A stretch of DNA of 63,435 bases, the filler included. It is 4 parts of 4 records of this genome, joined end to end, with 100 filler letters (N's around TTAATTAATTAA, not from the genome) between each part and the next. Parts side by side here need not be neighbours in the genome. Positions count along the whole stretch, not along the records: positions 32,565 to 57,078 come from SRR31156797_28087; 3 more parts are not named here. One strand, written 5' to 3'. A program made the position numbers and the translations under genes. Positions 34,257 through 56,627 of the stretch are shown here, piece after piece. A model generated the notes under the pieces. The model ran no database searches and was not told the origin of the DNA. It saw nothing but the letters and a program-made list of their open reading frames with translations. Each line of letters opens with the position of its first letter. Positions within the stretch are counted from its first letter, which is position 1.

Positions 34257-34363
34257 AATGGCGCTCCTCAGTTGAAGTTACGTGTGCCCCTCTTCTCGCA
34301 ATGACTAAGCCTGTCAGGGGCAGACAGGGTGAGTCAGTCAATCGAATAGAGTGTTGCTTCCCC

Positions 34364-36487: not shown

Positions 36488-36599
36488 GATATTTCCTCCT
36501 AACTTGATAATACGTTGTGGCGTAACTGACGCAGGGGACCTCACAGCATGGATACGGCCCCTGGCTTTTTTTTCGCCTCGGTACATATATGCAACAACC

Positions 36600-38124: not shown

Positions 38125-38745
38125 TTAGAATAACGGTGCCATGTCTTTGATAAAACGTTCTTCCATATTTTCATCATCTGCGCGCACAAATTTGTTTAGG
38201 TTGATGCTGCTCATCCTGGCCGACCAGATTCGCGCGCCACTCGCTACCTCCAGTAAGACGGCCTCCATCAAGTCTAGAGTCTTATCAGTCTCTTTTCCAC
38301 CCCATACATCTGCATAAATAGTTGAGTAGTAACCAAAACCGGCTTGCCAGCTGACCATGCTTGCCCACGCATAATGCTCTTCCGGGTACTGGTAGCTTGA
38401 AGTGGACTCGCTTGTCAGGTGGATGATCAAGAGTTCACTGGCTCCGGCATTACGCAATGTTTGGTGTAGTGTCTCTTTAGTTACTTGGCTTGTACCTAAG
38501 CCATGAGCGTAGCTTGGTATGGCTTTGATCCCGATTTTTTCAAACTCCTCGACAAAGCTGTCCTCAAATATTTTGTGGGCGGTTGGGTCTGTGAATACGC
38601 CCATAATGAATACTGGCCCTTTGAGTTTGCCACGGTACTCCGGATTGATCCAGGAGTCTGTGAGCTTATTATGGGCACACCCTGTGAAAAGCAGGATAAA
38701 GGCGCACAGAGGGGCAAACAAAAAACCACGGGCATAATGCTTCAT
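38125..38745 (-). CDS. Hypothetical lipoprotein
   Basis: Lipobox FTGC; LTDSW.NPEY N-terminus and IWSA C-terminal strand. Confidence 0.75.
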   Translation of the reverse strand: MKHYARGFLFAPLCAFILLFTGCAHNKLTDSWINPEYRGKLKGPVFIMGVFTDPTAHKIFEDSFVEEFEKIGIKAIPSYAHGLGTSQVTKETLHQTLRNAGASELLIIHLTSESTSSYQYPEEHYAWASMVSWQAGFGYYSTIYADVWGGKETDKTLDLMEAVLLEVASGARIWSARMSSINLNKFVRADDENMEERFIKDMAPLF

Positions 38746-38871
38746 TGTGTCTTCCTGAAAAGTAGAGAAATCAATTGATGAGTACAAATCGTATAGGGTG
38801 TTTGCGGGTAATGCATGTAGAGTTTTTTAAACTACCTGAAATTGCATTTTTAATCGGTTTCAGGAGGTAGT

Positions 38872-39192
38872 TTAGCGTCTGCCACCGCCTCTTCCCCCTC
38901 TTGCAGGACGTCCCATGCTTGCTCCCTGGGCTCTTGCAGATTGAATTCTTTGTTGACGAGCAGGTCTGTTTTCCTGACGCTGCTGTTGTCTTCGTTCAAC
39001 GTTATCGTTGTCAACGTGGACATGAATGTCATTGTTGTAGCCGTATCTATTGTAGGGATATCGGTAACCGTCATACACACCATATCTCCTACTGCTCGAC
39101 ACATAAGTACCGTGATAGCCGCTGCAGCCAGCGAGAAACAGCATAATGCCTAACAAAAGAAGGGTGATGAACAGGGTTCTATCTTTTTTCAT
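38872..39192 (-). CDS. Small low-complexity lipoprotein (Tyr-rich, RGG tail)
   Basis: Lipobox LAGC; YRYPYNRYGY; ends ARGGRGGGRR; directly follows the upstream gene. Confidence 0.75.
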   Translation of the reverse strand: MKKDRTLFITLLLLGIMLFLAGCSGYHGTYVSSSRRYGVYDGYRYPYNRYGYNNDIHVHVDNDNVERRQQQRQENRPARQQRIQSARAQGASMGRPARGGRGGGRR

Positions 39193-39194
39193 GA

Positions 39195-40112
39195 TCAATT
39201 CCCTCCATCAGGTAATGATTGCGAGGACCATTTCTGTATCAGTAGCAGGGCACCGGTGGGATCGCTAATCAAGGCGGTGTTGCCTTTATTCGGTGCTTGA
39301 TCGGGTGTGATTAAGACGACACCTCCTAAATTTTTTGTGAGTTTTGTTGTTGCATCCGGATCAGTAACCCGGACGACCGGTACCCATAGCAATTTGTCGC
39401 TGCCGCCTTCCACGTGGCGCATTCCAGCAACCCATTTGCCTTCATCTGTGAAGACACTGTAGTCGTCCTTAATTGACAGGACTTCATCATACCCTAGTAT
39501 AGATACATAAAAGTCTTCTGTTTTCGCGGTATCGTTGGTCCAAATTTCATCCCACAGCCAGTCACCCACTGCAATCTCCGTTTCAGGCGGATCACCCCCA
39601 TTAGCATTGAGCAGTACTAGGTTTGTCCCCAGAGGATCTTTGATTAAGGCTGTCCTGCCTCGTTTGACCATATCTAAAGGGCCATTTACTATTGTTCCGC
39701 CGCTGGTTTTTACTTTTTGAGATGCACTATCCACATCCATAACTGAAATCGAAGGTACCCATACTCCTGGAGTTGTATTTTGTTGGGGCTTCATCTGAAG
39801 AATGCCTGCGATACGTTTCCCATTATTCCTGACTACTGCATAATAGTCTTGGTACTCAATTTGCCAACCGAATAATTTTTCATAAAATTCCCCGGCAGAC
39901 AGGAGGTCTGGAGTTACCAGATCATGCCAGATGAAATGTCCGGGAAAGCTCTTGCCGCTTGGATGATCTGTTATCGGAACCTGGGCTATCTCTTTTCCAC
40001 CAGCGGTTAACCTGCCGATATTGGAACAGCCACTCAGTACCATTGCAGCCGCAATGGAACCAAGTACGAAGAAGAATGTTGTATTTTTTGTAAAGAGAGA
40101 AAGAAAACGCAT
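39195..40112 (-). CDS. Two-domain VOC/glyoxalase-family lipoprotein
   Basis: Lipobox LSGC; FIWHDLVT..FYEKLFGW, GRTALIKDPLG; second domain WLWDEIWT..FY...LG. Confidence 0.85.
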   Translation of the reverse strand: MRFLSLFTKNTTFFFVLGSIAAAMVLSGCSNIGRLTAGGKEIAQVPITDHPSGKSFPGHFIWHDLVTPDLLSAGEFYEKLFGWQIEYQDYYAVVRNNGKRIAGILQMKPQQNTTPGVWVPSISVMDVDSASQKVKTSGGTIVNGPLDMVKRGRTALIKDPLGTNLVLLNANGGDPPETEIAVGDWLWDEIWTNDTAKTEDFYVSILGYDEVLSIKDDYSVFTDEGKWVAGMRHVEGGSDKLLWVPVVRVTDPDATTKLTKNLGGVVLITPDQAPNKGNTALISDPTGALLLIQKWSSQSLPDGGN

Positions 40113-40313
40113 CGATAACTCCTTGATGTGATGATAAAATAATCCTGTTGTGTGAAAGCTGTGTACCCGCGCATCCCTGGCAAGGCAAACATATCCACTG
40201 AAAGCGGTGGCGGAAGAGGTGACAACGCGTATGTATGCAGTATTTATTACCTCTGGAAAAACGGAGGAAGGCAGCAGGCAGAAATATGTTGATCCTCTTT
40301 TTTACGGTATTTG

Positions 40314-41237
40314 TTATTTAGTATTTACAACTGGAAAAAATCGATTTCTTCCATTCTCTTTAGCAGTATAAAGGTTCTGGTCGGCACTACCCAAGAGTAC
40401 ATCCGGGGAAATATTGTCATCCCGATTTAATGTAACCAACCCGATACTTATAGAAATGCAATCAGTGGCCTGAGAGTATTCATGAGGGATTTGGAGGGCT
40501 GTCACTTCATGTAGGCATCGCTCGGCAACAATCCTTGCACTGTCAAAGTCGGTTTCCGGTAAAATCACCACAAACTCTTCGCCACCGTATCTGGCAACGA
40601 AATCGGCTGGACGCAAAAGGGATTTTTCCAAGGCTTTTGCAATATTATGCAGAGCGATATCCCCCATCGCATGGCCATAGTTATCGTTATACTTTTTAAA
40701 ATAATCTACATCCAACATGGCTAAAGAAAAGGGCGTACCATTGCGGGTTGCACGTGCCCATTCCTTTTCAAAAACAATCTCAAAGCGCCGGCGATTGGGG
40801 ATCTCCGTAAGGCCATCGAGGTAAGCAAGTTGATCCAACAGTTTATATTGATGAACAATGCGCAGGTGGTTGCGAACACGAATTTTCACTATTGGCGGAG
40901 AGAAGGGTTTGGTGATATAGTCCACAGCCCCAAGCCTGAGTCCTTGTTCCTCCTCTTCTATGGAATTAAGTGCCGTAACAAATATTACAGGGATTTTTTT
41001 TGTGCTGTTGTTGTTTTTTAGAGTTTTAATGACCTCGTAACCACCCATCTCCGGCATAACGACATCAAGTAAAATCAAGTCAGGTGGAGTATCACTTAAT
41101 GCATGTTTCAATGCCTGGGCACCACTTCTTGCAAGTACCGGTGAATACTCATCTTTAAGCAGGTCAGCCAAAACTTTCAGGTTCATTTTTTCATCATCGA
41201 CAATCAGAATGCGTGCTTTCTTTTCCTCTTTCGACAT
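40314..41237 (-). CDS. Response-regulator diguanylate cyclase (REC-GGEEF)
   Basis: ILIVDD, LLDVVMP, KP; DGLT, DVDYFKKYNDNYGH, I-site RPAD, RYGGEEF. Confidence 0.95.
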   Translation of the reverse strand: MSKEEKKARILIVDDEKMNLKVLADLLKDEYSPVLARSGAQALKHALSDTPPDLILLDVVMPEMGGYEVIKTLKNNNSTKKIPVIFVTALNSIEEEEQGLRLGAVDYITKPFSPPIVKIRVRNHLRIVHQYKLLDQLAYLDGLTEIPNRRRFEIVFEKEWARATRNGTPFSLAMLDVDYFKKYNDNYGHAMGDIALHNIAKALEKSLLRPADFVARYGGEEFVVILPETDFDSARIVAERCLHEVTALQIPHEYSQATDCISISIGLVTLNRDDNISPDVLLGSADQNLYTAKENGRNRFFPVVNTK

Positions 41238-41242
41238 AGTCG

Positions 41243-44089
41243 TTACTGTTCTTTTTGTTGAATTAACGTTAAGAGTTCTTTGGTCGATGTAGCTGCCTGC
41301 TCATACTCGATATCGTCAATCTGCTCAGCAATCCCCCACAGTTGTTTTTCCACTCCCAAACTGGACATTTCTATTCTGATTTCCGCAAAAAGTTCTTCGG
41401 CAGCCAACTCTCCTTGTTCAAGTTGTATAAGGAGTTGCTGTAATTTCTTTTCCAGTTCCTGCATATCCCCTTGCTCAACCTGGTAAGAAGTTGGTTGAGC
41501 TTGCTCATCAACCTGTTCTTTAGGTGGTGGAAGCATAGAGAGAGAGGAAAGAATTCTATCTGCTTCATTAATAAAAGGTATAAGCAGGGCAGCAGCCTCT
41601 TCCCGTTGCCCGTTTTTTAATGCCTGCTCAACTACCGCAGATTTTTGCATCAAAGATGCAGCACCTATATAGCCCGAGACCCCTTTAATAGTGTGCGCAT
41701 TCTCCTGAATGAGATCCCATCGGTTGGCCTTTGATAATTCTCGCATGAGGGTCGGCAAGTTACTGTAACTTTTCTTGAAGTCATAGAGCATAGTAAGAAA
41801 AAGCTGGTACTTACCGTTTAAGGTCTTTAGCGCTTCTTCCTTATTTATACCTGGCATTGCAGGGAGTGTGTCTATATGATCGTTTGCTGAAAGGAAGGGC
41901 TGATTTGTCGACAGTGGCTCCTGCCGATTAGGGTGTTTATCGGGTATCCATTGTCGCAATGCCCGGTAAAGGGCCTCTGGATCAATCGGCTTTGTGATGT
42001 GCTCATTCATTCCGGCAGCAATACTCTTTTCGCGATCACCGGACATGGCGTGAGCGGTCATGGCAATAATTGGTAAATCCTTGTGTTGGCTCTCCTGGCG
42101 AATCCTTCTAGTAGCCTCCAGGCCATCCATCTCCGGCATTTGGATATCCATCAAAACGAGATCAAATTGTTCCTGACTAAGGGCAAGAAGGCATTCTTTA
42201 CCATTTGCGGCAGTTTGGACCTCCATACCAACATCTTCAAGAAATTCCGTTGCAACTTGGCGATTAATGCTATTATCGTCAACAAGGAGAAGCCGTGCCC
42301 CCTGAATTTTTGTGAGATCAACAGCCTGATTTTTATGTTTGATTCTTCTCGGCCCTGAAACGGTTTCAATTCCCAGGATATCAAGCAATGTGTCGTATAT
42401 AACGGATGCATATACAGGCTTTAAAAGGAAAGCGTCCATGCCCACGTTACCGGCCTCTACATATGCCTCCTCCCTGCCATTGGCAGTTACCATCAACATA
42501 GCTGGAATTTGGGAATGAGCTGTATGGGCTTTTATTCGTCTGGCCGTTTCAATGCCGTCTATTCCCGGCATTATCCAATCCAGCAGAACCACATCATAAG
42601 AACGGCCCTTTTCCATCGCCTCATCAAGCAGACTGATTGCCGATCGTCCGTCAATAGCGGTATCAACCTTTATATTAAGAGATGTAAGTATAGAAGAAAG
42701 GACATCTCTTGCCGCTTTATTGTCATCAACCACCAAAGCTCGCAAGCCTTCGGGCAGCTCCCCGACATTCGATATCTTTGGTTTCTTTTTTTCAGAGATT
42801 TGAAGTTTGGCAGTAAAAAAGAAATCCGATCCATTTCCGGGTTCACTTTTAACCCATATCCGCCCTCCCATCATCTCTGTCAGTTGTTTGCAAATGGCAA
42901 GGCCCAGCCCTGTACCACCATATTTTCGTGTAATGGAATCATCAGCCTGGCTGAATGCAGAAAAAAGCCCGGCCACCTCTTCCTTTTGTAGACCGATGCC
43001 TGTATCGCGAACGGAAAATTGAAGAGTCAGATCATCCTTATCCTGCTTCTCCAGCAAAACAGAGACTATAACTTCACCCTGGTCAGTGAACTTTACGGCA
43101 TTGCCTGCAAGATTCATCAACACCTGGCCCAAACGTAATGGGTCGCCGATAAGGCTGTAACTGATTTGGGGATCTATGTGAAAAAGAAATTCCAGTCCTT
43201 TTGCCTCTGCCTGCATTCCAACCACATTGGCAATGTTGCCGAGAACATCTTCCAGGTTGAAAGGGACCTCTTCAAGGCTGAGTTTGCCAGCATCAATCTT
43301 CGAGAAATCTAGAATGTCGTTTATGAGGTTGAGCAGCGTGTTGGCGGACAATAGAACTTTATCGACATAGTCTAACTGCTTTGGATCCAGCGGTGTGTTT
43401 TGCAGCAACGACGTCATGCCGATGATACCGTTCATCGGCGTTCGAATTTCATGGCTCATTCGTGCCAAAAAATCCCCCTTAGAAGTGTTGGCGGATTCAG
43501 CCAGCTCCTTGGAGTGTATCAATTCCTTTTCCATTTGTTTTTGGCGAGTCATGTCCATGGCTGTAAACAGATAGCCAACTACCCTTCCTTCCGGGTTGGA
43601 GAGACTCGTGATGGAAAGGCTTACGGGGAGATGTTCACCCTCTTTGCATACGTAAATCCATTCACGCACTCGGCTATGCTTTTGCTTGACAAATTGATCA
43701 AAGACCTTCATGCTGTGACGATCCGACTCAGGAAGCGTACTTATTTCTTTACCGTAATGATCCAATTCATCTGAAAGATGAAGGGAAAGGATATTACGTT
43801 TACCGACCATCTCATCGGTATAATATCCTAAAAGGGTTGAAGCACCTTTACTGAATAGTTGAATAGTCCCGTCGGGATCGGTTGCGATTATGGAAAGCTG
43901 GGTTGCAGCATCAAGTACGGCCTGTCTCTCGGCATCGGCAGCTTGTGCACGATGCAGCATACTTTCAGTTTGCTCAAACTGTTTAACTACAAATTCGGCG
44001 GTTATTTCTGCTGCTTCCCTTGCGACTTTGATTTCACTCCGGAGCATGTCAATTTCTACCTGGAGTTCGTGCCTACTTTTTTCCATCAT
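41243..44089 (-). CDS. Soluble hybrid histidine kinase: coiled coil-PAS-HisKA-HATPase-REC-REC-Hpt
   Basis: MSHEIRTPMNG, NLAGNAVKFT, DTGIG, GGTGLGL, two REC domains, AHTIKG Hpt; no TM; ATG overlaps the protease stop (ATGA). Confidence 0.95.
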   Translation of the reverse strand: MMEKSRHELQVEIDMLRSEIKVAREAAEITAEFVVKQFEQTESMLHRAQAADAERQAVLDAATQLSIIATDPDGTIQLFSKGASTLLGYYTDEMVGKRNILSLHLSDELDHYGKEISTLPESDRHSMKVFDQFVKQKHSRVREWIYVCKEGEHLPVSLSITSLSNPEGRVVGYLFTAMDMTRQKQMEKELIHSKELAESANTSKGDFLARMSHEIRTPMNGIIGMTSLLQNTPLDPKQLDYVDKVLLSANTLLNLINDILDFSKIDAGKLSLEEVPFNLEDVLGNIANVVGMQAEAKGLEFLFHIDPQISYSLIGDPLRLGQVLMNLAGNAVKFTDQGEVIVSVLLEKQDKDDLTLQFSVRDTGIGLQKEEVAGLFSAFSQADDSITRKYGGTGLGLAICKQLTEMMGGRIWVKSEPGNGSDFFFTAKLQISEKKKPKISNVGELPEGLRALVVDDNKAARDVLSSILTSLNIKVDTAIDGRSAISLLDEAMEKGRSYDVVLLDWIMPGIDGIETARRIKAHTAHSQIPAMLMVTANGREEAYVEAGNVGMDAFLLKPVYASVIYDTLLDILGIETVSGPRRIKHKNQAVDLTKIQGARLLLVDDNSINRQVATEFLEDVGMEVQTAANGKECLLALSQEQFDLVLMDIQMPEMDGLEATRRIRQESQHKDLPIIAMTAHAMSGDREKSIAAGMNEHITKPIDPEALYRALRQWIPDKHPNRQEPLSTNQPFLSANDHIDTLPAMPGINKEEALKTLNGKYQLFLTMLYDFKKSYSNLPTLMRELSKANRWDLIQENAHTIKGVSGYIGAASLMQKSAVVEQALKNGQREEAAALLIPFINEADRILSSLSMLPPPKEQVDEQAQPTSYQVEQGDMQELEKKLQQLLIQLEQGELAAEELFAEIRIEMSSLGVEKQLWGIAEQIDDIEYEQAATSTKELLTLIQQKEQ

Positions 44090-44532
44090 GCGCAGTCCTT
44101 CACACCGTTGAGCGCTAAAGAAAGACACAAATCGGCTGCAGTCTCAACCGTATCTGCGGTGTACTCCCCTTCAACACCTACAAGCAGTATTTCTTCCGGT
44201 AATTCGCCCTCGCAGACATTGGGAAGCACTGAAAGTAAATAGGGCAAACCCGCCTCATGTCCGAAATGCTTCTGTGAGAGTGTGGCTATAATGTCTTTAG
44301 CCGATAATATTACAACCTCTCCAAGAGCACCTATATCTTGGACCGCATCGACAAAAACAACCCTTCCTCCCTGCTCCAGAAAAGACAATAGGTTTAGACC
44401 GCCTATCCCACCTTCAACGATATCTATTTCGGTTTCAAAAGGTTGCATCGCCTTTAACCTGTCGTAAACAGCAAGACCAACAGAATCATCAGCAATGAAA
44501 CGATTGCCGATACAGATTATAAAACGCTTCAT
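44086..44532 (-). CDS. Hydrogenase maturation endopeptidase (HupD/HycI family)
   Basis: IGNRFIADDSVG, VEGG..GL, VFVDAV, GHEAGL. Confidence 0.92.
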   Translation of the reverse strand: MKRFIICIGNRFIADDSVGLAVYDRLKAMQPFETEIDIVEGGIGGLNLLSFLEQGGRVVFVDAVQDIGALGEVVILSAKDIIATLSQKHFGHEAGLPYLLSVLPNVCEGELPEEILLVGVEGEYTADTVETAADLCLSLALNGVKDCA

Positions 44533-44535
44533 CTT

Positions 44536-46080
44536 CTATAATCCAATCGGTAAAATTTTATTCTTAGTGCCTCCTTGGATGCAATGGACGGCACATACAA
44601 GGCATGGATCAAAAGATCGGACAACATGACCAGCTTCAATGGGATTGTGTATGTCTTTGATCGGGGTACCGACCAATGCCTCTTCCCATCCACCTCGGAC
44701 GCCATTACTATCACGCGGAGATCCATTCCATGCAGTTGGCGTAATAATTTGATAATGGGCAATTTTATTATTTTTCACTTTAACCCAGTGGCCAAGAGCA
44801 CCTCGCGCGGCCTGAATCAACCCTGCACCCTTACCATCGGGAATGGTGCTCACAGGATGATAGAAGGTATCATTTCGTCTCTCTTGAAGCTCTTCCAGCC
44901 ATGTACCCATTGCTCCCAGCAGAGAGACAGGACGAACAAGGCGTGCAAGTTCTCTGGAAAAAACCGAGGGGCCATTATCCCTAACCATTTCCCGGAAAAG
45001 AGGATGTGCGTTGGTAACCATCTCGGCCAAGGGACCGGTTTCTACAGCATGACCGTCATACCTTGGAGCCTTAATCCATGAATACTGCTTGCCGCTCTGG
45101 CCGGAGGCATATGGCTTTGTCTCACCCACAAAAGGGTGCATCTCTTTATCTTTTTGTTCAAACCAGGCGTGGGAAACATCTTCCGTAATAACAGAGGAGT
45201 CAAATGTATCCGACGCAGCACCAATGGAAAACCCTGCTCCGGTCAACCTGCCATCGACCCCTTGTACAGATGTCTCCTCGGGCAGTGGATAATTTCCGTA
45301 GCAGAGAAATCGGTTGGTACCTCTCCCCACTGAGTCGAGGCCAGCCTCACGAGAAAAACGCAGAAAAAAGCCAACCTCACTCTCACGATGGGAACTACTT
45401 TCAGCAAGCCAAGCCTCAAGATCTTTCATGCTGGTTATGATATTCCAGCGCTCGAGACTGCAGCCGAGGATATGTTGTTCGTACCATTGACAAAACCGTT
45501 CAAGGATTAATTTACATTGCTGAATCTTAGCTATCTCTGGAATCGATGTTACTCCACCTGGAACCATGAACGATGTATGCGGCCACTGTCCACCGATAAT
45601 GGCGACAATTTGCAGCAGTCGCTTGGTTTCCCGGATGACCTGAATGGCACTTTCTCCCTCCAGTGGTCTGTACCTGCGACGCGCCTCCTCACCCAATGAG
45701 TGACTCTGATAGCCAGCGTGGTTGGCAAAATCAACCATAAACATCAGCACAGCCTGGCGGATATCGCTCTGGATAGTTTCTACCATCAACGCGAGGTTAC
45801 GAAGACGTCGAGCATTGTCTGGAGGAGTAATTCCGGCAATTTCATCTAGTGCCTCAACTGCTGCAGTGAGATGAGTGAGACTACAGATACCGCAAATGCG
45901 CGGAGTCACAACTAAGCCGTCCCGTGCTCCCCTCCCCATCATCATTGCTTCGAAACCACGGTACATGGTGCCTGCGCTCCAAGCATCAATGATTGTGTTG
46001 TCTTTGATCTCTACCCTAATCTCAAGATCCCCCTCGGCTCTATTGAGAGGAATATTGATGTTTTTTGCTATATTTACCAT
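44536..46080 (-). CDS. [NiFe]-hydrogenase large subunit, group 2 (2c-like)
   Basis: NRAEGDL, L1 PRICGICSLTH, L2 SFDPCLVCAVH followed by a 15-aa C-terminal extension. Confidence 0.95.
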   Translation of the reverse strand: MVNIAKNINIPLNRAEGDLEIRVEIKDNTIIDAWSAGTMYRGFEAMMMGRGARDGLVVTPRICGICSLTHLTAAVEALDEIAGITPPDNARRLRNLALMVETIQSDIRQAVLMFMVDFANHAGYQSHSLGEEARRRYRPLEGESAIQVIRETKRLLQIVAIIGGQWPHTSFMVPGGVTSIPEIAKIQQCKLILERFCQWYEQHILGCSLERWNIITSMKDLEAWLAESSSHRESEVGFFLRFSREAGLDSVGRGTNRFLCYGNYPLPEETSVQGVDGRLTGAGFSIGAASDTFDSSVITEDVSHAWFEQKDKEMHPFVGETKPYASGQSGKQYSWIKAPRYDGHAVETGPLAEMVTNAHPLFREMVRDNGPSVFSRELARLVRPVSLLGAMGTWLEELQERRNDTFYHPVSTIPDGKGAGLIQAARGALGHWVKVKNNKIAHYQIITPTAWNGSPRDSNGVRGGWEEALVGTPIKDIHNPIEAGHVVRSFDPCLVCAVHCIQGGTKNKILPIGL

Positions 46081-46102
46081 GCCGCCCTTTGTCGTGTTCA
46101 GT

Positions 46103-47038
46103 TTATACTTTGGAAGTTCTATTTTTAAGGTGCTCAGGGGCTGCAGCCGCCGCCATACCTTTATACACCATGTAATGAGCGCGGTTTACTCCCATGGGAA
46201 GTGAGAGTGGTATGCCTTCAATATTGGGAGTTTCGAAAAAAGGTGACGCTTTTGGGAATTCCGGGTCCGTACAACCGAAGCAGGGAATCCCAGCTCTGGG
46301 TTTAGATGATTGCTGGTTCCATAGTAATTTATTGCATGGTCCTGGCACAAGCGGCCCTGCACAGCCCATGTGAAAGAACAAGCACCCCATTTCTCCGAAG
46401 TCTGACTCTTCTACCCTGTATTCATGATACTCATTGCGGGTGCAACCCTGATGTATTGTTGTGCCGTACCATTCAAGGGGACGTTGATATTTATCGAGTT
46501 CCAATCGAACACCATTAGCAACAGAAGCAATGGCTCCGGCAATCACATCGTGATGGCAGGGACAGCCCGCAAGATTAATAACCGGTTGTCCAGATTGAGT
46601 GGTAAAGTCAATCCCGAGAAAGCCTCCTCTTTCCCGTTTGTCAAACTGCAACCCTTTGGCTTCAATAATGGAATCCGAGCCAAACCCTCCAAAAGAAGCA
46701 CACGTACCAACAGCGAGAATATTTTGAGCTTTCGATGCGAGCCTGTATATAATTTCTTTCTTGGGTTGGCCATTTTTTGTATGGAACATTCCAGTTCCTG
46801 CCGGTCCACAGATAATTGAGCCTTCCACCAGTAGAATATCCAGAGGCTGATCACCGGCAATAATCCGTTTGAAGAGCTGTTCATGTTCAGGTGGTGAAAT
46901 ATGAGAAAAAGAAGGATGCCAGAGAAGTTTAATGTTTAATGAACGTAATAATTCTACAATATTTGGAAATTCGCTGCTCAAAAAAGAAAAGGTGTCGCCT
47001 CCACATCCCCCTCCTTGCAGCCAATATGCTGTCTTCAA
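46103..47038 (-). CDS. [NiFe]-hydrogenase small subunit, group 2, no Tat signal
   Basis: Starts at WLQGGGCGGD; VGTCASFGG, GCP, HQGC...GCL...GC, PCFGC; HoxB-like C-terminal tail; TTG start. Confidence 0.95.
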   Translation of the reverse strand: MKTAYWLQGGGCGGDTFSFLSSEFPNIVELLRSLNIKLLWHPSFSHISPPEHEQLFKRIIAGDQPLDILLVEGSIICGPAGTGMFHTKNGQPKKEIIYRLASKAQNILAVGTCASFGGFGSDSIIEAKGLQFDKRERGGFLGIDFTTQSGQPVINLAGCPCHHDVIAGAIASVANGVRLELDKYQRPLEWYGTTIHQGCTRNEYHEYRVEESDFGEMGCLFFHMGCAGPLVPGPCNKLLWNQQSSKPRAGIPCFGCTDPEFPKASPFFETPNIEGIPLSLPMGVNRAHYMVYKGMAAAAAPEHLKNRTSKV

Positions 47039-47108
47039 AAAAGCTTCCCCCCCATGTTAAGCTTAAACTTCGATCGTGATCAATCGAGTTATGTCACGAT
47101 TAGTATGT

Positions 47109-47137
47109 ATTATCGGGAAAACGATGATAAGAGTCAA
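47109..47137 (-). promoter_or_regulatory. Putative sigma70 promoter of the hydrogenase operon
   Basis: TTGACT-N17-GATAAT on the minus strand, about 70 bp upstream of the start. Confidence 0.5.
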
Positions 47138-47240
47138 TAACAGATGTTAAATCTATAAAAACGTGCAGCCATTGGCAGGGCCCGTGATAGTTAAAAAATT
47201 GCCATAATTCCACATCTTTTTTTTTCTTTTTGTACACTTG

Positions 47241-47307
47241 TGCTCATTTGAGCATTTTAATCATTGCCATAAGATTGATTTGTACTTAAAATATGCTCAT
47301 ATGAGCA
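47241..47307 (+). promoter_or_regulatory. Sigma70-like promoter flanked by two TGCTCATWTGAGCA operators
   Basis: Palindromes at 47241-47254 and 47294-47307 flank TTGCCA-N17-TAAAAT (47264-47292). Confidence 0.75.
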
Positions 47308-47322
47308 AAATGGAGATAACCT

Positions 47323-47664
47323 ATGCCACGCCCGACTAAACCGAGATTTGTTTCAGCCTACCCTGTTATGGCAGCTTTTGTGCCTCGAGGAATTGCAGTA
47401 ACAGGGGAGGTGCTCATTAGTGTGGAGGAATTTGAAGCCATACGGCTGAGTGATTTTGAACATTTAGATCAGGAAAGTGCAGCTACCATGATGGGAGTTT
47501 CCCGTCATACTTTCGGTAGACTGCTCGCCAAGGCCAGAACAACTGTTGCCGATGCCCTGGTTACCGGAAAAGAGTTGAGAATTGAAGGTGGTAATTACGA
47601 GATTAGAGGCAGGGGGATGAAACGTCGGAGGCGCGGAGGAGGCGGGTGCGGCAATAAGAGATAA
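47323..47664 (+). CDS. DUF134 family HTH protein
   Basis: MPRP.K.R, EEFEAIRLSDFE.LDQE.AA..MGVSR.TF.R.L..AR..VADALV.GK.LRIEGG. Confidence 0.92.
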   Translation: MPRPTKPRFVSAYPVMAAFVPRGIAVTGEVLISVEEFEAIRLSDFEHLDQESAATMMGVSRHTFGRLLAKARTTVADALVTGKELRIEGGNYEIRGRGMKRRRRGGGGCGNKR

Positions 47665-47707
47665 GCAGTAGTTTTTAGATAACCGATTAACCCAAGGAGC
47701 TTATAAC

Positions 47708-47884
47708 ATGCCTAAAAGAAACGAGACAGGACCACAAGGTCAGGGAGCAGGAACAGGAAGAGGACTTGGTAACTGCGGAGTTTGTAAGGGGAGTTCGTCG
47801 CAGCGCCAACAAAGCGTCGAGACAAGCGGTAATAGAAAGACAAACAGGGGAAGCGGCGGCGGTCGTGGACGCGGCACCCGCTGA
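47708..47884 (+). CDS. Small DUF5320-like Gly/Arg-rich protein (58 aa, below the ORF-track cutoff)
   Basis: MPKRNETGPQGQGAGTGRGLGNCGVC...GGGRGRGTR; RBS AAGGAG. Confidence 0.8.
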   Translation: MPKRNETGPQGQGAGTGRGLGNCGVCKGSSSQRQQSVETSGNRKTNRGSGGGRGRGTR

Positions 47885-47917
47885 AATCTTCAATATAAAA
47901 AACTATGAGGTGATATT

Positions 47918-48244
47918 ATGCCAGGATTTGACAGATCAGGCCCTATGGGACAGGGCTCCCAGAGCGGTAGGAGCATGGGGAAGTGCAACCCGGATGCTCA
48001 ATCATCGGATCAATACAACGATTTTAGCAGGGGCATGGGCTGCCGTCGGGGATTTGGTGGCGGCATTGGCGGCGCGGGACGCGGCAGGGGGCGGGGAGTG
48101 AATTTTTCAGGCCAACCTGCAGGCAACCGCCAACCAATTGTCCCTGTAGATGAACACGACACGTTAAGAACCCAAGCCAACCAGTTAAAGGAGTCGCTTG
48201 CATCTATACAACAGCGGCTGGATGCACTTGAAAAGAAAGAGTAA
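47918..48244 (+). CDS. DUF5320 family protein
   Basis: MPGFDRSGPMGQGSQSGRSMGKC, RG-rich middle, C-terminal coiled coil. Confidence 0.88.
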   Translation: MPGFDRSGPMGQGSQSGRSMGKCNPDAQSSDQYNDFSRGMGCRRGFGGGIGGAGRGRGRGVNFSGQPAGNRQPIVPVDEHDTLRTQANQLKESLASIQQRLDALEKKE

Positions 48245-48562
48245 CTAACTCAACAGGAAAGGGGGCGGTCGGTTTCCGAAAATTTGACCGTTCTCCTTTT
48301 CAGCCGTTACGCTCTTCAAAAACTGAGGCTCGCTCCTTTCCGCAGGGCGGGTAGAGAACATGGGGTGCAATGAGCGTAGACTTAATGGGATCGTTTTCGG
48401 TTCGGTAATCAGTGAACGCACAGCCGCAGCAGCGTTAGCAACGCAAAGTGGCGAGTGTTTCGATCTCAATTTCACTCATTTGGAAAGGGACACGTTCTAG
48501 GAAGAACTGCATAACATTGAAAGGGCACTCATAAAGAAGGCAACAAATTCGGGGAGGGCACC

Positions 48563-49324
48563 ATGCCAAGTCAAGCGATGGGGTATTATAGCGGGCACCG
48601 AGGTAAGCTTCTGAAAGACTTCGATTATACCTCCGGGCTGATGAGATCTTCTCTTGTCGCACGTTATGGGCATGAATTGGCCAGCACCTTGGAAAGAGAG
48701 GCGCGCAGAGAGTATGAAATGCTCCTTCCGGAGATCCCTTATATAAAAGGGAATCGCGCTAAAATGCTCAATACCTTTCTGCTCATTACCGCCCAGGAAC
48801 TTGCGGTCTATAAAGCGATGAAGACGTACGCTAAGCCCCCAGCAGAAGCATGGAAACTGTGCCACGAGGCGCTCCGCTGCAGACTCACTGAAATTCCCCC
48901 GTGGAAGCGGTGGTTGTTGAGGCGCTTTATGTTCTCTCCACTGGTGAGAATGATTATGGCGAGGCGAGCCAGGCTGCAACAGAAGGTTCGGTTTGGCGAT
49001 TTTGAGGTTGAGTACCTTGTTGGTGCAGGCAGCGAGTTTGATTTTGGTGTTAATTACCTTCAATGCAGCAATCAGACCTTTGTGAAAAAACACGGTGGAG
49101 AGGAGTTCGCTCCGTACATCTGCATGTCAGACATCGCGCTGAGCGAGGCGATGGGGTGGGGCCTTATCCGCACGCAAACCTTAGGCGATGGCTGTTCCCA
49201 TTGTGATTTCCGGTTCAAGGACGGAGCGGCCACACAGATTTCCTCGAAAACTCTCGAAGTGCAAGAGGCCATCGGGAAAATTTGCAGGAAAGAGGCCGAA
49301 CAAAACGCTGCATCGATTGACTGA
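48563..49324 (+). CDS. L-2-amino-thiazoline-4-carboxylic acid hydrolase family protein
   Basis: FDFGVNYLQC, YICMSD, RTQTLGDGCSHCDFRF. Confidence 0.85.
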   Translation: MPSQAMGYYSGHRGKLLKDFDYTSGLMRSSLVARYGHELASTLEREARREYEMLLPEIPYIKGNRAKMLNTFLLITAQELAVYKAMKTYAKPPAEAWKLCHEALRCRLTEIPPWKRWLLRRFMFSPLVRMIMARRARLQQKVRFGDFEVEYLVGAGSEFDFGVNYLQCSNQTFVKKHGGEEFAPYICMSDIALSEAMGWGLIRTQTLGDGCSHCDFRFKDGAATQISSKTLEVQEAIGKICRKEAEQNAASID

Positions 49325-49352
49325 CCGCCGTTGTTGCGTTTAGCTGTTAGGG
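49295..49352 (+). mobile_element. Degenerate attC-like site
   Basis: GCCGAAC...GTTAGGG, 58 bp, with internal AAACGC/GCGTTT pairing; overlaps the gene end. Confidence 0.4.
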
Positions 49353-49470
49353 AGCAAGGGGATACCTCATTATAGTAGGCAGTATATTGCTACGAGCAAA
49401 TAACTTCAGACCATCTAGTGCTTAAAATCAAACAGCAAGAGATGAAAAAGTTTATTCGAAGACCGCACTG

Positions 49471-50301
49471 TTAAAACGAGAAGGGGTCTGAGGGCGCTCC
49501 ACCATGGGTAGCAAGGAAATGTTCGACCAGCCTACGGGCAATGCTCGATTTTGGAGGGAGTATTGGCGGTAACCTCTCGCGGGTAAACCATTGAGCATCA
49601 ACTATTTCATCGTTGTCTATCTGTAGCAGGCCACCACTGAGGTGGGTGGTAAAGCCGACCATCATGGAATGGGGAAAGGGCCAAGGCTGACTGCCAAAAT
49701 AGCTGATGTCGTCCACCTTTAGATTGACTTCCTCAAAAATTTCGCGTTGGACTGCTTGTTCCATGGTTTCCCCGGGTTCGACAAATCCGGCGAGAGGACT
49801 GTACTTGCCTGCGGAAAAATGTTTGTTACGGGCGAGAAGAATCCGATCCCCATCGATGATGGACATGATAACTGCCGGCGAAATTCGGGGGTAACTGACC
49901 AGGCCGCAATTGCTGCAAAACTTGGCAATTTCAGTGCTGCTTTCGTTTACTTCTCGGCCGCACCGGCTGCAATACTGGTGGTCCCTGTTCCAACGCAGAA
50001 TTTGGAGGGCTCTTCCTGCCTGGGTTAACTGTTTGTCCGCGACATAGGGGTATAGACTGCGGAGGCTAATGAATGTCGTGTCAATCAACGTGGTGTCCTG
50101 GTTGAGGTCGACCACAATGGATGGGTATAGATCAGTATTGCTGTTTAGAAAACGATGGTATGTAACCTTGTTCTTGAGTGTTTCAGGAACTTCGCTGGGA
50201 AGGGTAAATTGATTACCATCTTGATGGATAAGAAGATTGTCGCCAAGAAAGATAAAGAACAGACACCCTGCAGGTAGTTTTTCTGGAAGAATATTTTTCA
50301 C
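49471..50301 (-). CDS. nudC: NAD(H) diphosphatase NudC
   Basis: Zn finger CSRCG...CSNCG, Nudix box, SQPWPFPHS. Confidence 0.93.
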   Translation of the reverse strand: MKNILPEKLPAGCLFFIFLGDNLLIHQDGNQFTLPSEVPETLKNKVTYHRFLNSNTDLYPSIVVDLNQDTTLIDTTFISLRSLYPYVADKQLTQAGRALQILRWNRDHQYCSRCGREVNESSTEIAKFCSNCGLVSYPRISPAVIMSIIDGDRILLARNKHFSAGKYSPLAGFVEPGETMEQAVQREIFEEVNLKVDDISYFGSQPWPFPHSMMVGFTTHLSGGLLQIDNDEIVDAQWFTRERLPPILPPKSSIARRLVEHFLATHGGAPSDPFSF

Positions 50302-50363
50302 ATTTTTTGCCCTTAACTAGCCAATCTAATGATTATGCTCTGCTGCCGTGCAAGCGAGGCCGA

Positions 50364-52139
50364 TCACATGGCAAGTCGCACTCTTTCAGGGTTAAGTTTT
50401 CGTTCCAGTCTTTTCGCATATTGGCTGAGCATGTAACAGCAAATAAAGTAAAGCACCGCGATGGTTGTGTAAATCTCAAACGGATAGAGCATGAGGCGGT
50501 TGTTGATGGAGTAGGCTGCTGTCGTCAGTTCCATTACCCCAATGATATAGGCCAGGGATGTGTCTTTAAAGGCAGCGATAAAGAGGCCGACAATGGCTGG
50601 CAGCATCTGTTTGAGTGCTTGGGGTAACACTATCCAGCGCATGGTCTGCAGGTAGCTCAGTCCGGTTGATTTGGCCGCCTCTACCTGGCCGGGTGGGATA
50701 TTATCGATCCCACCGCGTACAATTTCGGCTATATAGGCACCGAAAAAAATGGTCATTGCTACTACCGCACTCCAGAAGACATCAAGCTGGATTTTCAGCA
50801 TGGGAGGAACAAAGAAGTAGACCCAGAAAATAACCATAATAAGCGGATTACCGCGTATCAACTCGATGTAAAATATACAGGGAATTCGAGCTACCTTGTT
50901 TTTTGCCGAACGTCCAATACCGACCACCAAGCCAATGAAAAAACTTACCGTAATACAGATCAACGCCATGATTAGGGACATTGACAAGCCGCCAAGGCCC
51001 ATGAAAACCTCAGTGCTGCCGCCCTTGGGAAAACGCCAGAAAAGAAGTGCTGCCAGGTTGTCCCATATAATTTGATAGTTAAAAGACGATAAGCCTCGTC
51101 CAGCTTGGTAAATGAGGCTGATCAGAAAAAGGATAAACAGAATTTTCGCGCCATTCTTGATGGTGCGCCAACTCATTTGCCTAAATTTAACCAATGCTAC
51201 CTGGGTTTGCGAGAGGGTCTTAGTGTCTACAGGGGGACGCTGGAAAAGGCCTGCAACACGTGTAAGGGCAGTATTAAGCAGAATAAAGGGCGCAAAAAGA
51301 ACATCTGCAAACCTGCGCATGAAAGTTTTGTCTGCCTGGTTAACAATCTTGAGCTTGGCGTTAACCAGATTGAGAAACAGAGAAATGAGCAAAGAGAGGG
51401 CCAGGTATATGCCGGTTGCAGCAGCGGTAGCCTCGAAGCCGCTATAGGTAAGTGCCTCCACTTCTTGTGCCGACCAGCAGACCTCGGCGACTCCAACTGT
51501 CATTGCCAGGGAGGAGTTTTTCATGTTGTTGAGAAATTCACTGCCAAGCGGCGGCATAATTTCCCGAAAAGCCAGCGGAAGAATGATCTTTCTCAGTGAT
51601 TGGCCATAGGTCATCCCCGAGGAGTAGGAAGCTTCAAGCAGGCCTTTGGGAACAGACTGGATACCTGCCCGGATAATTTCTGCCATGAAGGAACTGGTGT
51701 AGACCCCAAGGCCAAGGGTGGCAACCCAGAACTCAAAGTCCATGTTAAAAAGCGTTAGCCGCACCTGTTCTGGCAAACCGGCAGGCAGGGCAAAGTTCCA
51801 GAAAAAGAGCTGCACCAACAGCGGGGTATTTCGAAAAAACTCAACATAGGCCGTGGCAAATCCATACACTGGCTTAAACTGAGAGAGTCTTCCCAGGCCA
51901 AAGAGGGTGCCGAGGATCAGGGCAATAACTGAAGAGTAAAGTGATATGGTGATTGTGAGTCTGAGCCCGTTAAGGAGCAGTTCTCCCATATTGCCGTATT
52001 CTGTTTCACTGTAAAGTACGGCCCAGTGAAAATCATAATCAAAGTGAAAAAAGAAGCCAAAATAGCATCCTATCAATCCCAGCAGGGTGATAAGGGCCAG
52101 GTTCTGTACCCAGGGCTTTTCGAAATAGTACTGCAGCAT
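50364..52139 (-). CDS. Polar amino-acid ABC transporter, fused double permease
   Basis: Two HisM/GlnP-type modules (FRNTPLLVQ...EAS and IRGNPLIM...EAA). Confidence 0.92.
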   Translation of the reverse strand: MLQYYFEKPWVQNLALITLLGLIGCYFGFFFHFDYDFHWAVLYSETEYGNMGELLLNGLRLTITISLYSSVIALILGTLFGLGRLSQFKPVYGFATAYVEFFRNTPLLVQLFFWNFALPAGLPEQVRLTLFNMDFEFWVATLGLGVYTSSFMAEIIRAGIQSVPKGLLEASYSSGMTYGQSLRKIILPLAFREIMPPLGSEFLNNMKNSSLAMTVGVAEVCWSAQEVEALTYSGFEATAAATGIYLALSLLISLFLNLVNAKLKIVNQADKTFMRRFADVLFAPFILLNTALTRVAGLFQRPPVDTKTLSQTQVALVKFRQMSWRTIKNGAKILFILFLISLIYQAGRGLSSFNYQIIWDNLAALLFWRFPKGGSTEVFMGLGGLSMSLIMALICITVSFFIGLVVGIGRSAKNKVARIPCIFYIELIRGNPLIMVIFWVYFFVPPMLKIQLDVFWSAVVAMTIFFGAYIAEIVRGGIDNIPPGQVEAAKSTGLSYLQTMRWIVLPQALKQMLPAIVGLFIAAFKDTSLAYIIGVMELTTAAYSINNRLMLYPFEIYTTIAVLYFICCYMLSQYAKRLERKLNPERVRLAM

Positions 52140-52255
52140 GGTCGGCCTTAAATAGTCATCCCGGAGCGGATGCTCCGGGATGTGCGCTTGTTGGATGTAT
52201 TCTGTACGGGGAAACCGTTACAGTTTATTGTCCAGTTTGCTTTTATCTCTGCGGC

Positions 52256-53083
52256 TTAAGGCCACATTTCAATTTTTTCGGTCATTGGAAAAGGTGTTTC
52301 AGTATCAGGTCCGAACCACTTGTTGTACAATTCCATGTATTTCCCATCTTTCCACATGTCCTGGATGGTGAAGTTTATAGCATCACGCCACGCAGAATCA
52401 TCCTCGGGGAGACCAACGCCGTAAGGCTCATCAGAGATGAACTCGCCAACCAATTCATATTTTCCAGGCTCTTTGGCAGCAAGGGCGATGAGCAGGGTGG
52501 AGTCAGTGCTGATTGCTTGTACACGACCGGATCGCAGTGCTTCAAACATCTCGACTTCATTTTGGTAACCAGTAACCTTAGGGTTGCTGTCGCCAAGTCT
52601 TTTCAGATAGGCTTTAGCGTTGACAATAGAAGTCGTTCCCTGCATGGAACCAACTTTTTTTCCTGCAAGATCTTTGGGATCTTTAATGGTGCCTACTGGT
52701 GCCAGAATTTTTTGGCCATCAAAAAAGTAGGTAATAGAAAAATCGATTTTTTCATCACGAACACGCTTGTGGGTCATGTTGGAAAGGACCATGTCCACTT
52801 TTGGAGGATTCGTCTGGACAAAAGAAATGCGGGTTTTATTATTGACGACTACCGGCTCAAACTTAACGCCGAGACGTTTAGCGATTTCCATGGCAACATC
52901 CATGTCAAAGCCAACCCACTCATTGTTGGCATCGATAAAACCAAATGGTTTACCCTTGTTGGTGATTCCCGCTTTGACAACTTTGTCTTTCATGACGCGG
53001 TCATAAGTTGGTCCTGCTAAAACCATGCAGGCCGATGCAAACAACAAGACTGCGGTCAACGCACTGATTTTAAAACCTTTCAT
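52256..53083 (-). CDS. Polar amino-acid ABC substrate-binding protein
   Basis: Signal peptide, PFGF, GFDMD, MTH..VRDEKIDFS.TYF, EPYGVG. Confidence 0.93.
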   Translation of the reverse strand: MKGFKISALTAVLLFASACMVLAGPTYDRVMKDKVVKAGITNKGKPFGFIDANNEWVGFDMDVAMEIAKRLGVKFEPVVVNNKTRISFVQTNPPKVDMVLSNMTHKRVRDEKIDFSITYFFDGQKILAPVGTIKDPKDLAGKKVGSMQGTTSIVNAKAYLKRLGDSNPKVTGYQNEVEMFEALRSGRVQAISTDSTLLIALAAKEPGKYELVGEFISDEPYGVGLPEDDSAWRDAINFTIQDMWKDGKYMELYNKWFGPDTETPFPMTEKIEMWP

Positions 53084-53173
53084 TGATCTCTCCTTGTGCA
53101 GAAAAGGATTTATGAGTTACTGCCGGCGGCTCCATGCTGCAAGCAGGTACTGCTTTTTTAAGGCTACCTTGAA

Positions 53174-53902
53174 TTAGTGGCTGAGAATTTTACTTAGGAA
53201 ATCCTTGGTTCGCTGGTGCTGTGGGTTATTGAAAAAGATTTCCGGATTATTCTGTTCTACCAGTTTGCCGTGGTCCATAAAAATAACCCGGTCTGCCACT
53301 TCTCTGGCAAAGCCCATTTCGTGGGTAACACAGACCATGGTCATTCCTTCCTCGGCAAGGGATTTCATGACGTCGAGTACTTCGTTGATCATCTCCGGGT
53401 CGAGCGCACTGGTTGGCTCGTCAAAGAGCATGATTTTAGGCTGCATGGCAAGACCACGGGCAATGGCAACCCGTTGTTGTTGGCCTCCTGATAATTGAGA
53501 GGGGTAAAAATCCGCCTTGTCCGGAATATCAACCTTCTCCAGCAGTTCCATGGCAACCGTAGCGGCCTTTTTGCCGGACATTTTCCTGACCATTGTCGGT
53601 GCCAGGGTGACATTTTCGAGCACGGTCATATGGGGATACAGGTTGAACTGTTGAAAAACGAAGCCGACTTCAGCCCGGAGGTGGGTCATGTTGGTGGCAG
53701 GATTGTTGACATTCATCCCGTCTACTTCAATGTCTCCTTCCTGGATTGGTTCCAATCGATTGATACAGCGGATAAGCGTGCTTTTTCCCGATCCTGAAGG
53801 TCCACAGATAACGACAACCTCACCCTTGCTGATTTCCAGGTTGATATCGTCGAGAACGTGAAAATCCCCAAACCATTTATTGACTTTGTTAAACGTAATC
53901 AC
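53174..53902 (-). CDS. Polar amino-acid ABC ATP-binding protein (GlnQ-like)
   Basis: [28 protein letters not shown]. Confidence 0.95.
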
Positions 53903-54037
53903 AGTAGCCTCAGCGACAAAATGATACGGGGAAACAATAATGCTTCACGCCATACCAGCATATTTTTTTAAAAGGATAATAGTCAGTAAACATAGTCGCA
54001 AGCCTTTGCAGGCGCAATCAAATGATGAACCAGATAC

Positions 54038-56504: not shown

Positions 56505-56552
56505 AATTTTTGACAGCTTGATTGAGAATAATTGCTGAGTATAGAAACAGCC

Positions 56553-56594: not shown

Positions 56595-56627
56595 ATTTTC
56601 TTTGGCCTGCTTTGCAGGATCGGCCCC

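Follow-up and report, generated by a model that had tools for sequence, protein, structure and literature searches.

A predicted H2-responsive phosphorelay linking a group 2c-type [NiFe]-hydrogenase to c-di-GMP synthesis in a Desulfogranum-like bacterium

Introduction

Molecular hydrogen is a central currency of anaerobic communities. To our knowledge, H2 sensing by bacteria has been proven only for the aerobic systems HoxBC and HupUV, which switch on uptake-hydrogenase genes. Their class, group 2b (HoxBC-HoxJ-HoxA of Cupriavidus necator; HupUV-HupT-HupR), is the only one of the hydrogenase classes with an established kinase-based H2 sensor, as far as we know. In the HoxJ system, kinase activity is lowered by H2. 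Another class, group 2c, owes its name to the arrangement of a hydrogenase with a PAS-GGDEF-EAL protein. In the HydDB paper, group 2c is a context-based, putative diguanylate cyclase-linked class, and the Thiomargarita genome paper (PMC4853749) places it mostly in aquatic sulfate reducers and methylotrophs; a literature search found no experimental study of any member, in agreement with an earlier note on the DNA studied here, which had called the class uncharacterised and known from gene context. In group 2a, Huc (PDB 7UTD/7UUR/8DQV) passes electrons to the respiratory chain (HydDB paper table). Here, we describe a cassette of five genes for a [NiFe]-hydrogenase, its maturation protease, a hybrid histidine kinase and a diguanylate cyclase in a DNA stretch of 63,435 nt, which as a whole is called the window. 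The window has N spacers at 10550-10649, 32465-32564 and 57079-57178, each made up of 44 N, 12 bases and 44 N, and is therefore joined from at least four contigs. All positions given count along this joined stretch; the cassette lies wholly on the piece 32565-57078. The five genes are proposed to form one self-contained signalling module that may couple H2 to the synthesis of cyclic diguanosine monophosphate (c-di-GMP).

Organization and conservation of the cassette

The cassette consists of five co-directional open reading frames (ORFs) on the minus strand of window 40314-47038, separated by gaps of 22, 3, -4 (an ATGA overlap) and 5 nt. In order, and with their Pfam domains, they encode the hydrogenase small subunit (46103-47038; 311 aa, TTG start; PF01058 (Oxidored_q6) and PF14720 (NiFe_hyd_SSU_C)), the large subunit (44536-46080; 514 aa; PF00374 (NiFeSe_Hases), 286 bits), a maturation endopeptidase of the HybD/HycI type (44086-44532; 148 aa; PF01750 (HycI)), a soluble PAS hybrid histidine kinase (41243-44089; 948 aa from the ATG at 44089; PAS-HisKA-HATPase_c-2xResponse_reg-Hpt) and a REC-GGDEF diguanylate cyclase (40314-41237; 307 aa; PF00072 (Response_reg) and PF00990 (GGDEF)). 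The longest kinase ORF begins at a GTG at 44128. By their arrangement, the five genes are expected to be co-transcribed. Neither a cytochrome b nor a diaphorase nor a DNA-binding regulator was found by Pfam among the five genes, and no sigma-54 activator was found in the cassette or its flanks. The small-subunit ORF opens 5 residues ahead of a conserved W, and an in-frame TAA 21 nt upstream of the TTG start bars any longer ORF, which excludes a twin-arginine translocation (Tat) signal; a motif search likewise found no RRxF[LIV]K twin-arginine motif in the protein. As predicted from its sequence, the small subunit therefore has the cytosolic location, without Tat signal, that characterises group 2c.

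The linkage was followed in a survey of one genome per species, which yielded 41 loci whose ORFs were searched with the five window proteins. Thirty-eight of these loci are of a Desulfobacterota-type lineage (Desulfocapsaceae, Desulfobulbaceae, Desulfobacula, 'Desulfobacterium' metagenome-assembled genomes, Desulfohalobiaceae and Desulfonatronospira by record title); 34 of them extend past the kinase gene, and the other four end inside it. All 34 informative loci have the five-gene order, and in each a REC-GGDEF protein of ~305 residues is encoded next after the kinase. The protease, which in the window reaches 77.9 bits against the TIGR00072 cut-off of 47.45, was found in 37 of the 41 loci. 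The only families recurring across the 41 loci are the five of the cassette: clustering of the flanking ORFs gave no flank family present in more than 7 of them, and none of the window's 16 flanking proteins tested had a specific match in these loci. In two loci of one assembly series (L008 and L041) the cassette is broken up into many short ORFs, which may reflect long-read indel error or decay into pseudogenes.

A metabolic role would be the main alternative to signalling. In that case, the enzyme would recycle H2 in the cytoplasm, balance redox state or oxidise H2 at a low level with an acceptor whose gene lies elsewhere. The kinase and cyclase would be regulators co-expressed with it, and the PAS domain would sense something else, for instance redox state, O2 or a metabolite. 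The constant company of the five genes in 34/34 loci with unrelated flanks argues against this explanation, as does the absence of a gene for an electron-acceptor subunit, both from the cassette and from every conserved flank. Overall, we consider a metabolic hydrogenase unlikely, and further evidence on both sides is given below.

Relay residues and the proposed mechanism

The kinase starts with a long helix (residues ~6-64) and a PAS domain (~65-180), which are followed by HisKA, HATPase_c, REC1, REC2 and Hpt. It is free of membrane segments; Kyte-Doolittle means over 19 residues reach 1.28 at most. The H-box His, the N box, the G boxes, the Asp/Thr/Lys residues of REC1 and REC2 and the Hpt His are kept in 33-35 of 35 kinases. 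In the cyclase, the phospho-acceptor Asp58, the GGEEF active site and an RxxD motif five residues upstream of it are present; the 15 columns checked, among them the REC Asp, GGEEF and RxxD, are invariant in 34/34 orthologues, and TIGR00254 is matched at 163 bits against a cut-off of 37.4. All catalytic and phospho-acceptor residues of the cassette are intact, including those that bind Mg and GTP. Judged by its residues, the cassette has the features of a His-Asp-His-Asp phosphorelay ending in a REC-GGDEF cyclase. ORF coordinates and Pfam agree with the earlier note on the five packed genes, their gaps and domains and on the lack of a cytochrome b, diaphorase or transcription factor; the same note had described a small subunit without Tat signal, a kinase without transmembrane segment and a cyclase with intact active site and RxxD inhibitory site, all of which the data above bear out.

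In the HisKA-HATPase-REC-Hpt order the kinase is like the BarA/TorS/ArcB-type kinases, and the separate REC-GGDEF protein with GGEEF and RxxD is like PleD/WspR-type cyclases. The best NCBIfam matches are BarA (512 bits), TorS and ArcB for the kinase and the PleD family (257 bits) for the cyclase. Since these scores are under the curated cut-offs (890 and 474 bits), the two proteins are not orthologues of BarA/TorS/ArcB or PleD. Unlike BarA, TorS and ArcB, the window kinase carries two REC domains before the Hpt domain, has no membrane or periplasmic sensor and begins with a lineage-specific input module.

We propose that a cytoplasmic group 2c-type [NiFe]-hydrogenase, matured by its own protease, would react with H2 and that its redox state would be read by the helix-PAS module of the soluble hybrid kinase. 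Autophosphorylation of the kinase at the H-box His would change as a result, and the phosphoryl group would travel from His to Asp in either of the two REC domains, from there to His (Hpt) and on to Asp58 of the REC-GGEEF protein. The synthesis of c-di-GMP would thereby be switched, with the RxxD product-inhibition site limiting the output. Such an H2-driven path from hydrogenase through kinase and relay to c-di-GMP is the most likely mechanism and, in our judgement, probably the correct one. Within it, H2 would be the input signal and the hydrogenase would presumably contact the kinase; the response to H2 could be of either sign, and attachment or motility may be what c-di-GMP controls downstream.

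Class of the hydrogenase

Reference loci were taken from annotated plasmids, and their class labels rest on gene context and record annotation, not on HydDB. They comprised, for group 2b, HoxBC-HoxJ-HoxA of C. necator pHG1 and two HupUV loci; as 2a-like, four loci of the Huc kind that also carry accessory genes for NifU and NHL proteins; and a plasmid locus of Ideonella dechloratans encoding a small subunit, a large subunit, a protease and a PAS-GGDEF-EAL protein. A FastTree of large subunits had 126 rows, including 101 of 150 cluster representatives, retained at 440-640 residues, and sequences from 16 of the 41 genome loci; a quick IQ-TREE tree had 58 rows. In the IQ-TREE tree, the window large subunit falls inside a 23-row clade together with the Ideonella enzyme (support 100 in the Shimodaira-Hasegawa-like approximate likelihood ratio test, SH-aLRT). 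The Huc-like 2a rows are the sister group of this clade (support 94), and HoxC and both HupV references lie apart in a core 2b clade of their own (support 100). FastTrees of 126 and 65 rows agree with the placement. Among solved structures, both window subunits come closest to those of Huc from Mycobacterium smegmatis (2a), the large one to HucL (E 1.4e-114) and the small one to HucS (E 1.5e-78); group 1 enzymes rank far behind for both, and the NCBIfam equivalog models of respiratory hydrogenases score far under their cut-offs. The earlier note had made its proposal depend on the large subunit staying apart from respiratory hydrogenases and on the kinase/cyclase linkage being kept across Desulfobacterota. 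On both counts the proposal held, as the enzyme groups not with respiratory group 1 but with 2c-type enzymes linked to cyclases or phosphodiesterases, and the linkage is present in every informative locus of the survey.

The cassette hydrogenase fits HydDB group 2c, "diguanylate cyclase-linked (putative)", as far as sequence can tell. Like the class, it is a cytosolic group 2 enzyme genetically linked to a c-di-GMP enzyme, and its large subunit shares a clade with one linked to a protease and a PAS-GGDEF-EAL protein. It differs in that the cyclase is unfused, a hybrid kinase of 948 residues with two RECs and one Hpt standing between the hydrogenase and an EAL-less REC-GGDEF protein, and in that its sublineage is separate from the PAS-GGDEF-EAL sublineage. 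The L2 consensus of group 2c is given as SFDxCLVCTVH in the Thiomargarita genome paper (PMC4853749); the window sequence, SFDPCLVCAVH, agrees at 10 of the 11 positions, counting the free 'x', and the sole difference, A for T, is common to all 39 orthologues, whereas Ideonella has Thr. The cassette is a typical member of the H2-sensor class that was predicted from genomes in 2016.

In the small subunit, the proximal-cluster motif is C-G-G-D, that is, three Cys and an Asp. The Asp takes the place of the second proximal Cys in the window protein, in 38 of 39 orthologues and in Ideonella, and Asp or Glu stands there in 28/28 readable further members of the clade (4/4, 7/7 and 17/17 by sublineage); in 11 other loci the start of the gene was lacking. 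The same position is occupied by Cys in the 2b references and by Asn in the 2a references. A proximal [4Fe-4S] cluster with three Cys and an Asp is described in PMC11023054 for the O2-insensitive group 1h hydrogenase of C. necator. The distal His is present in the window protein and in group 2b, but not in group 2a, where the Huc-like references have Gln. With Asp and His at these two positions, the window small subunit does not have the Huc-type ligands (Asn at the second proximal position, no distal His). The medial cluster has three Cys ligands, as in 2a, whereas the 2b references carry an additional Cys. The cluster-ligand columns are kept in 38-39 of 39 orthologues, and the C-terminal tail, highly conserved, is invariant in the orthologue alignment.

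The Ni-binding motifs of the large subunit, L1 RICGICSLTH and L2 DPCLVCAVH, both have their Cys pairs, and the four Ni-ligand Cys are found in 39/39 orthologues. Past the L2 His there is a C-terminal extension of 15 residues, which would be removed by the cassette protease. The residue after the L1 cysteines is His in the window and in 39/39 orthologues, whereas it is Gln in 3/3 2b references. Gln at this place is diagnostic of H2 sensors. The window large subunit lacks this feature of the 2b sensors; it also lacks the second one, a large subunit that ends at the L2 His with neither extension nor protease. The gas-channel positions hold Ile and Met in the window, Ile and Phe in Ideonella, and Ile and Leu/Ile in the Huc-like enzymes. 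PMC11023054 gives Ile and Phe for H2 sensors and ties bulky residues there to the O2 resistance of these sensors.

Because of these cluster-ligand, L1 and C-terminal signatures, the window enzyme is neither 2a nor 2b in detail. With group 2b it has in common the small subunit without Tat signal, the adjoining soluble PAS kinase and an Ile at the position of HoxC I62. Apart from forming a separate clade, 2b enzymes differ by large subunits that stop at the L2 His, with no protease and Gln for the L1 His, and by small subunits with four proximal Cys besides the additional medial one. Moreover, the 2b output in the reference loci is a sigma-54 (NtrC-type) activator, which is absent here, and the kinase of the cassette is a hybrid. 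The similarity of HoxJ to it is confined to the kinase core, with no specific match at the N-terminus. Group 2a Huc, the best solved relative in the sister clade, shares the C-terminal extension and protease, the three-Cys medial cluster and a similar small-subunit C-terminal tail. It differs in the Asn at the second proximal position and the Gln for the distal His, and Huc-like loci contain genes for NifU, NHL-repeat and other accessory proteins and none for a kinase or cyclase.

Host and mobility of the cassette

The contig bearing the cassette can be assigned to a Desulfogranum-like member of the Desulfobulbales. The aspartate kinase encoded 7 kb from the cassette is 91% identical to the protein of Desulfogranum marinum, and both cassette flanks match D. 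marinum DNA at 76-85% identity, in keeping with the sulfur-cycling anaerobe suspected earlier. Genome-wide statements made here rest on D. marinum, the nearest relative. Window positions 38126-40231 and 47238-56615 match contig C88 of D. marinum (genome G001) at C88:86839-88877 and C88:89000-98280, and the cassette itself (window 40342-47051) matches another contig at C77:60486-67194. That is, in D. marinum the window's two flanks, with a glyoxalase-like gene and a DUF134 gene, lie ~120 bp apart and have no cassette between them. From this comparison, the cassette is evidently portable, and the inserted unit corresponds approximately to window 40250-47240, with the genes on the minus strand and the promoter region included. 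A strong match to the kinase N-terminus (63-85% identity over 200 residues) was found in 19 of 301 genomes of the same order, each in an open frame of ~950-1060 residues. The distribution of the cassette is patchy, at about 6% of sampled species. Going by record titles, cultured and non-pathogenic strains among the carriers are Desulfogranum marinum DSM 2058, D. mediterraneum DSM 13871 and Desulfofustis glycolicus DSM 9705.

Since the window was joined from several contigs with N spacers, and since the cassette genes of L008 and L041 are in pieces, one might suspect an assembly artefact, or a cassette that has decayed to an inactive remnant. Five intact ORFs on a single piece with Desulfogranum-like DNA on both sides, the conservation of every catalytic residue, and one DNA sequencing run that contains all sampled words of the stretch, though this may be its source sample, make such an origin hardly credible. 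Small shares of the stretch are contained in two marine-sediment sequencing runs. No RNA run containing it was listed, which speaks neither for nor against its expression.

Genes in 1-32464 include two for proteins with type IX secretion system (T9SS) C-terminal sorting domains, one for a DUF3575 protein and one for an LptD_2 protein; they are Bacteroidota-like, and the LptD_2 protein had no match in three Desulfogranum or Desulfocapsaceae genomes. They raised the idea of a Bacteroidota host with a transferred cassette, which was rejected for the cassette contig because the pieces are separate and the cassette flanks match D. marinum. The pieces in 1-32464 may come from another organism than the cassette contig, as in a mixed bin.

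In D. marinum, two or more other large subunits are full-length and group-1-like, and there are also partial hydrogenase matches and one HypD gene. Because of these other hydrogenases, the cassette enzyme need not be the uptake hydrogenase of the cell. A second [NiFe] large-subunit gene, full-length and group-1-like, is on the same D. marinum contig as the cassette (C77:88452-89990), ~21 kb away from it.

The helix-PAS input module

The best conserved part of the kinase is its beginning, as residues 26-100 have a mean identity to the window of 0.81-0.84, above most of the catalytic core. In an AlphaFold2 model of residues 1-200 (predicted local distance difference test, pLDDT, 80.9), residues 6-64 form a long helix and residues 65-180 a PAS fold, after which comes an exit helix. 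A Foldseek search with this model retrieved the PAS domains of FixL, LOV proteins and NifL at template-modelling (TM) scores of 0.4-0.5. A heme site in the PAS domain was considered on account of His104, which is nearly invariant, and His111, which is variable, and was found unconvincing. A complex prediction with the small subunit, large subunit residues 1-499 and kinase residues 1-186, run without the supplied alignments, gave a score of 0.01 and a mark of 0.34, a result that bears on binding in neither direction.

The wider clade was sampled by scanning metagenomes with an alignment of its more distant members. Of the 75 loci obtained, 43 had at least 1.5 kb past the large subunit, and 41 of these 43 gave 103 ORFs for Pfam; several contigs are near-duplicates, so that the counts are not independent. 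A signalling protein is encoded downstream in 20 of these 41 metagenome loci, namely a PAS-GGDEF-EAL protein in 4 and a histidine kinase (HK) in 16, and 3 of the kinase loci additionally have a REC-SpoIIE (PP2C) protein. Nothing but hyp genes or a LuxR-type gene, or no recognisable gene at all, follows in the remaining 21, and a REC-GGDEF protein of the window type occurs in none of the 41. A tree of 65 rows with 36 of the 75 metagenome loci resolves three sublineages. In the window sublineage, the nearest neighbours are followed by PAS-HK, PAS-PAS-HK, or PAS-HK-REC-REC with REC-PP2C. A second sublineage, mostly from soil metagenomes, is without signalling genes, and a third has PAS-GGDEF-EAL, PAS-HK and Rieske-PAS-HK partners. 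Loci of the soil sublineage (L070, L073, L081, L085, L086, L089, L091, L093, L096, L097, L114-L116 and L119) have Glu in the proximal cluster, and this sublineage may represent an uncharacterised type of energy-converting hydrogenase.

When kinase residues 1-186 were compared with the N-termini of the partner proteins, four partners, all from the window's own sublineage, matched with 33-47% identity (E 7e-30 to 6e-47). Their architectures (PAS-HK, PAS-PAS-HK and PAS-HK-REC-REC) differ from that of the window kinase. The other 20 partners tested have generic PAS similarity only (E 2e-7 or weaker); 19 of them belong to other sublineages or are HoxJ and HupT, and the remaining one, L105 of the window sublineage, has an ORF that as called starts late and gave a 47-residue match (E 1e-4). 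The kinase profile matched the N-terminal 333 residues of the Ideonella PAS-GGDEF-EAL protein with a probability of 0.56%, which gives no sign of an N-terminal module in common with that sublineage. In these comparisons of predicted proteins, the helix-PAS module is co-distributed with this hydrogenase lineage while the output varies. That the module travels with the hydrogenase and the outputs vary is the strongest computational argument for the hydrogenase as the input of the kinase. It is also hard to square with a metabolic hydrogenase next to a kinase that responds to an unrelated signal.

The nearest relatives outside Desulfobacterota, L108:4183-7934 and L124:2636-6373, encode a PAS-HK-REC-REC kinase without Hpt and have a REC-SpoIIE (PP2C phosphatase) response regulator where the window has REC-GGDEF. 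The output module has apparently been exchanged in these relatives. The exchange bears on a further alternative, in which information would flow the other way and the two-component proteins would control the activity, assembly or expression of the hydrogenase, for example through a c-di-GMP-responsive factor. The arrangement of the genes for co-transcription would suit such control, and D. marinum has c-di-GMP-binding regulators and 17 PilZ matches. The kinase, however, has neither a periplasmic nor a membrane input, its sole input module being the hydrogenase-associated helix-PAS region, and among relatives it is the output that is exchanged (REC-PP2C, a kinase alone, GGDEF-EAL) while the hydrogenase stays, which fits a conserved input. 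We regard this reverse flow as quite improbable.

A Rieske-type [2Fe-2S] domain stands at the N-terminus of five partners from a more distant sublineage (Pfam E 6e-8 to 5e-7). These kinase or GGDEF-EAL proteins are encoded at L102:4577-6664, L107:3933-5993, L112:3934-5994, L120:10145-13519 and L138:3771-6032. The Rieske-type domain could be an electron-accepting input domain, and would then suggest direct electron transfer as the principle of sensing.

Several observations weigh against an H2-driven module, and part of them would suit a metabolic hydrogenase. The predicted enzyme retains what marks a hydrogenase as normally matured and fit for catalysis: it has a C-terminal extension, a protease of its own and the L1 His, which the 2b sensors do without. 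Huc, its closest solved relative, is a true energy-converting enzyme. The mostly-soil sister sublineage, with hyp genes, a LuxR-type regulator or no signalling gene, has no signalling partner, so that clade membership alone does not imply sensing. In the kinase, no PAS cofactor-binding residue could be assigned, and in structure the domain is closest to generic PAS domains of the heme, flavin and LOV kinds, so that its fold resembles those that sense O2, redox state or light. Neither an electron-accepting group nor an electron path was identified in the kinase, and the Rieske-type domain that starts several more distant partners is absent from the N-terminus of the window protein. Finally, the c-di-GMP network of D. 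marinum is large, with 33 GGDEF matches besides those to PilZ, so that the genome does not reveal the particular process acted on downstream.

A broader reading, which we advance tentatively, is that the hydrogenase and the helix-PAS module make up a portable H2-input device that evolution has coupled to at least three outputs. These may be a plain kinase, a hybrid kinase with REC-PP2C, and a hybrid kinase with Hpt and REC-GGDEF.

Significance

The class and the idea are already in print (HydDB 2016). What may go beyond the published work is the relay architecture as a rule in Desulfobacterota, the portability of the cassette, the carboxylate ligand signature throughout the clade, and a lineage-specific input module with interchangeable outputs. 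If group 2c enzymes do sense H2, this gas would be linked to the c-di-GMP network, and hence to biofilm formation, aggregation and motility, in sulfate reducers and methylotrophs. If the portable device is real, marine sulfate reducers could tie H2 availability to lifestyles under c-di-GMP control, such as aggregation with H2-producing partners; attachment to H2-yielding surfaces would be another such choice. The carboxylate ligand of the proximal cluster and the helix-PAS module offer concrete handles on a ten-year-old prediction, which is directly testable because the cassette is compact, self-contained and present in cultured strains.

Other features of the window

A sigma-70-like promoter match (TTGACT-17-GATAAT) was found by consensus scan on the minus strand at 47109-47137, ~70 nt 5' of the small-subunit start, with 10/12 matches. 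The site is weak evidence, because the scan of the region gave few more sites than shuffles did (18 seen versus 13.1 expected). On the cassette contig, 32517-36586 encodes a trypsin/FG-GAP protein and a C25 (gingipain-family) peptidase and has no DNA match in D. marinum. Some genes are cut at the N spacers, such as the aconitase gene at 10674, whose product is without the first ~120 profile positions, and a fragment of a methyl-accepting chemotaxis protein (MCP) gene at 56628-57029. The divergent DUF134 gene (47323-47664) is part of the conserved flank and lies outside the cassette. Just 5' of it, at 47240-47310, are two copies of a 14-bp palindrome, TGCTCAT[A/T]TGAGCA, ~45 bp apart. Both copies are kept in D. 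marinum, and they look like the operator of the DUF134 protein, a putative DNA-binding protein.

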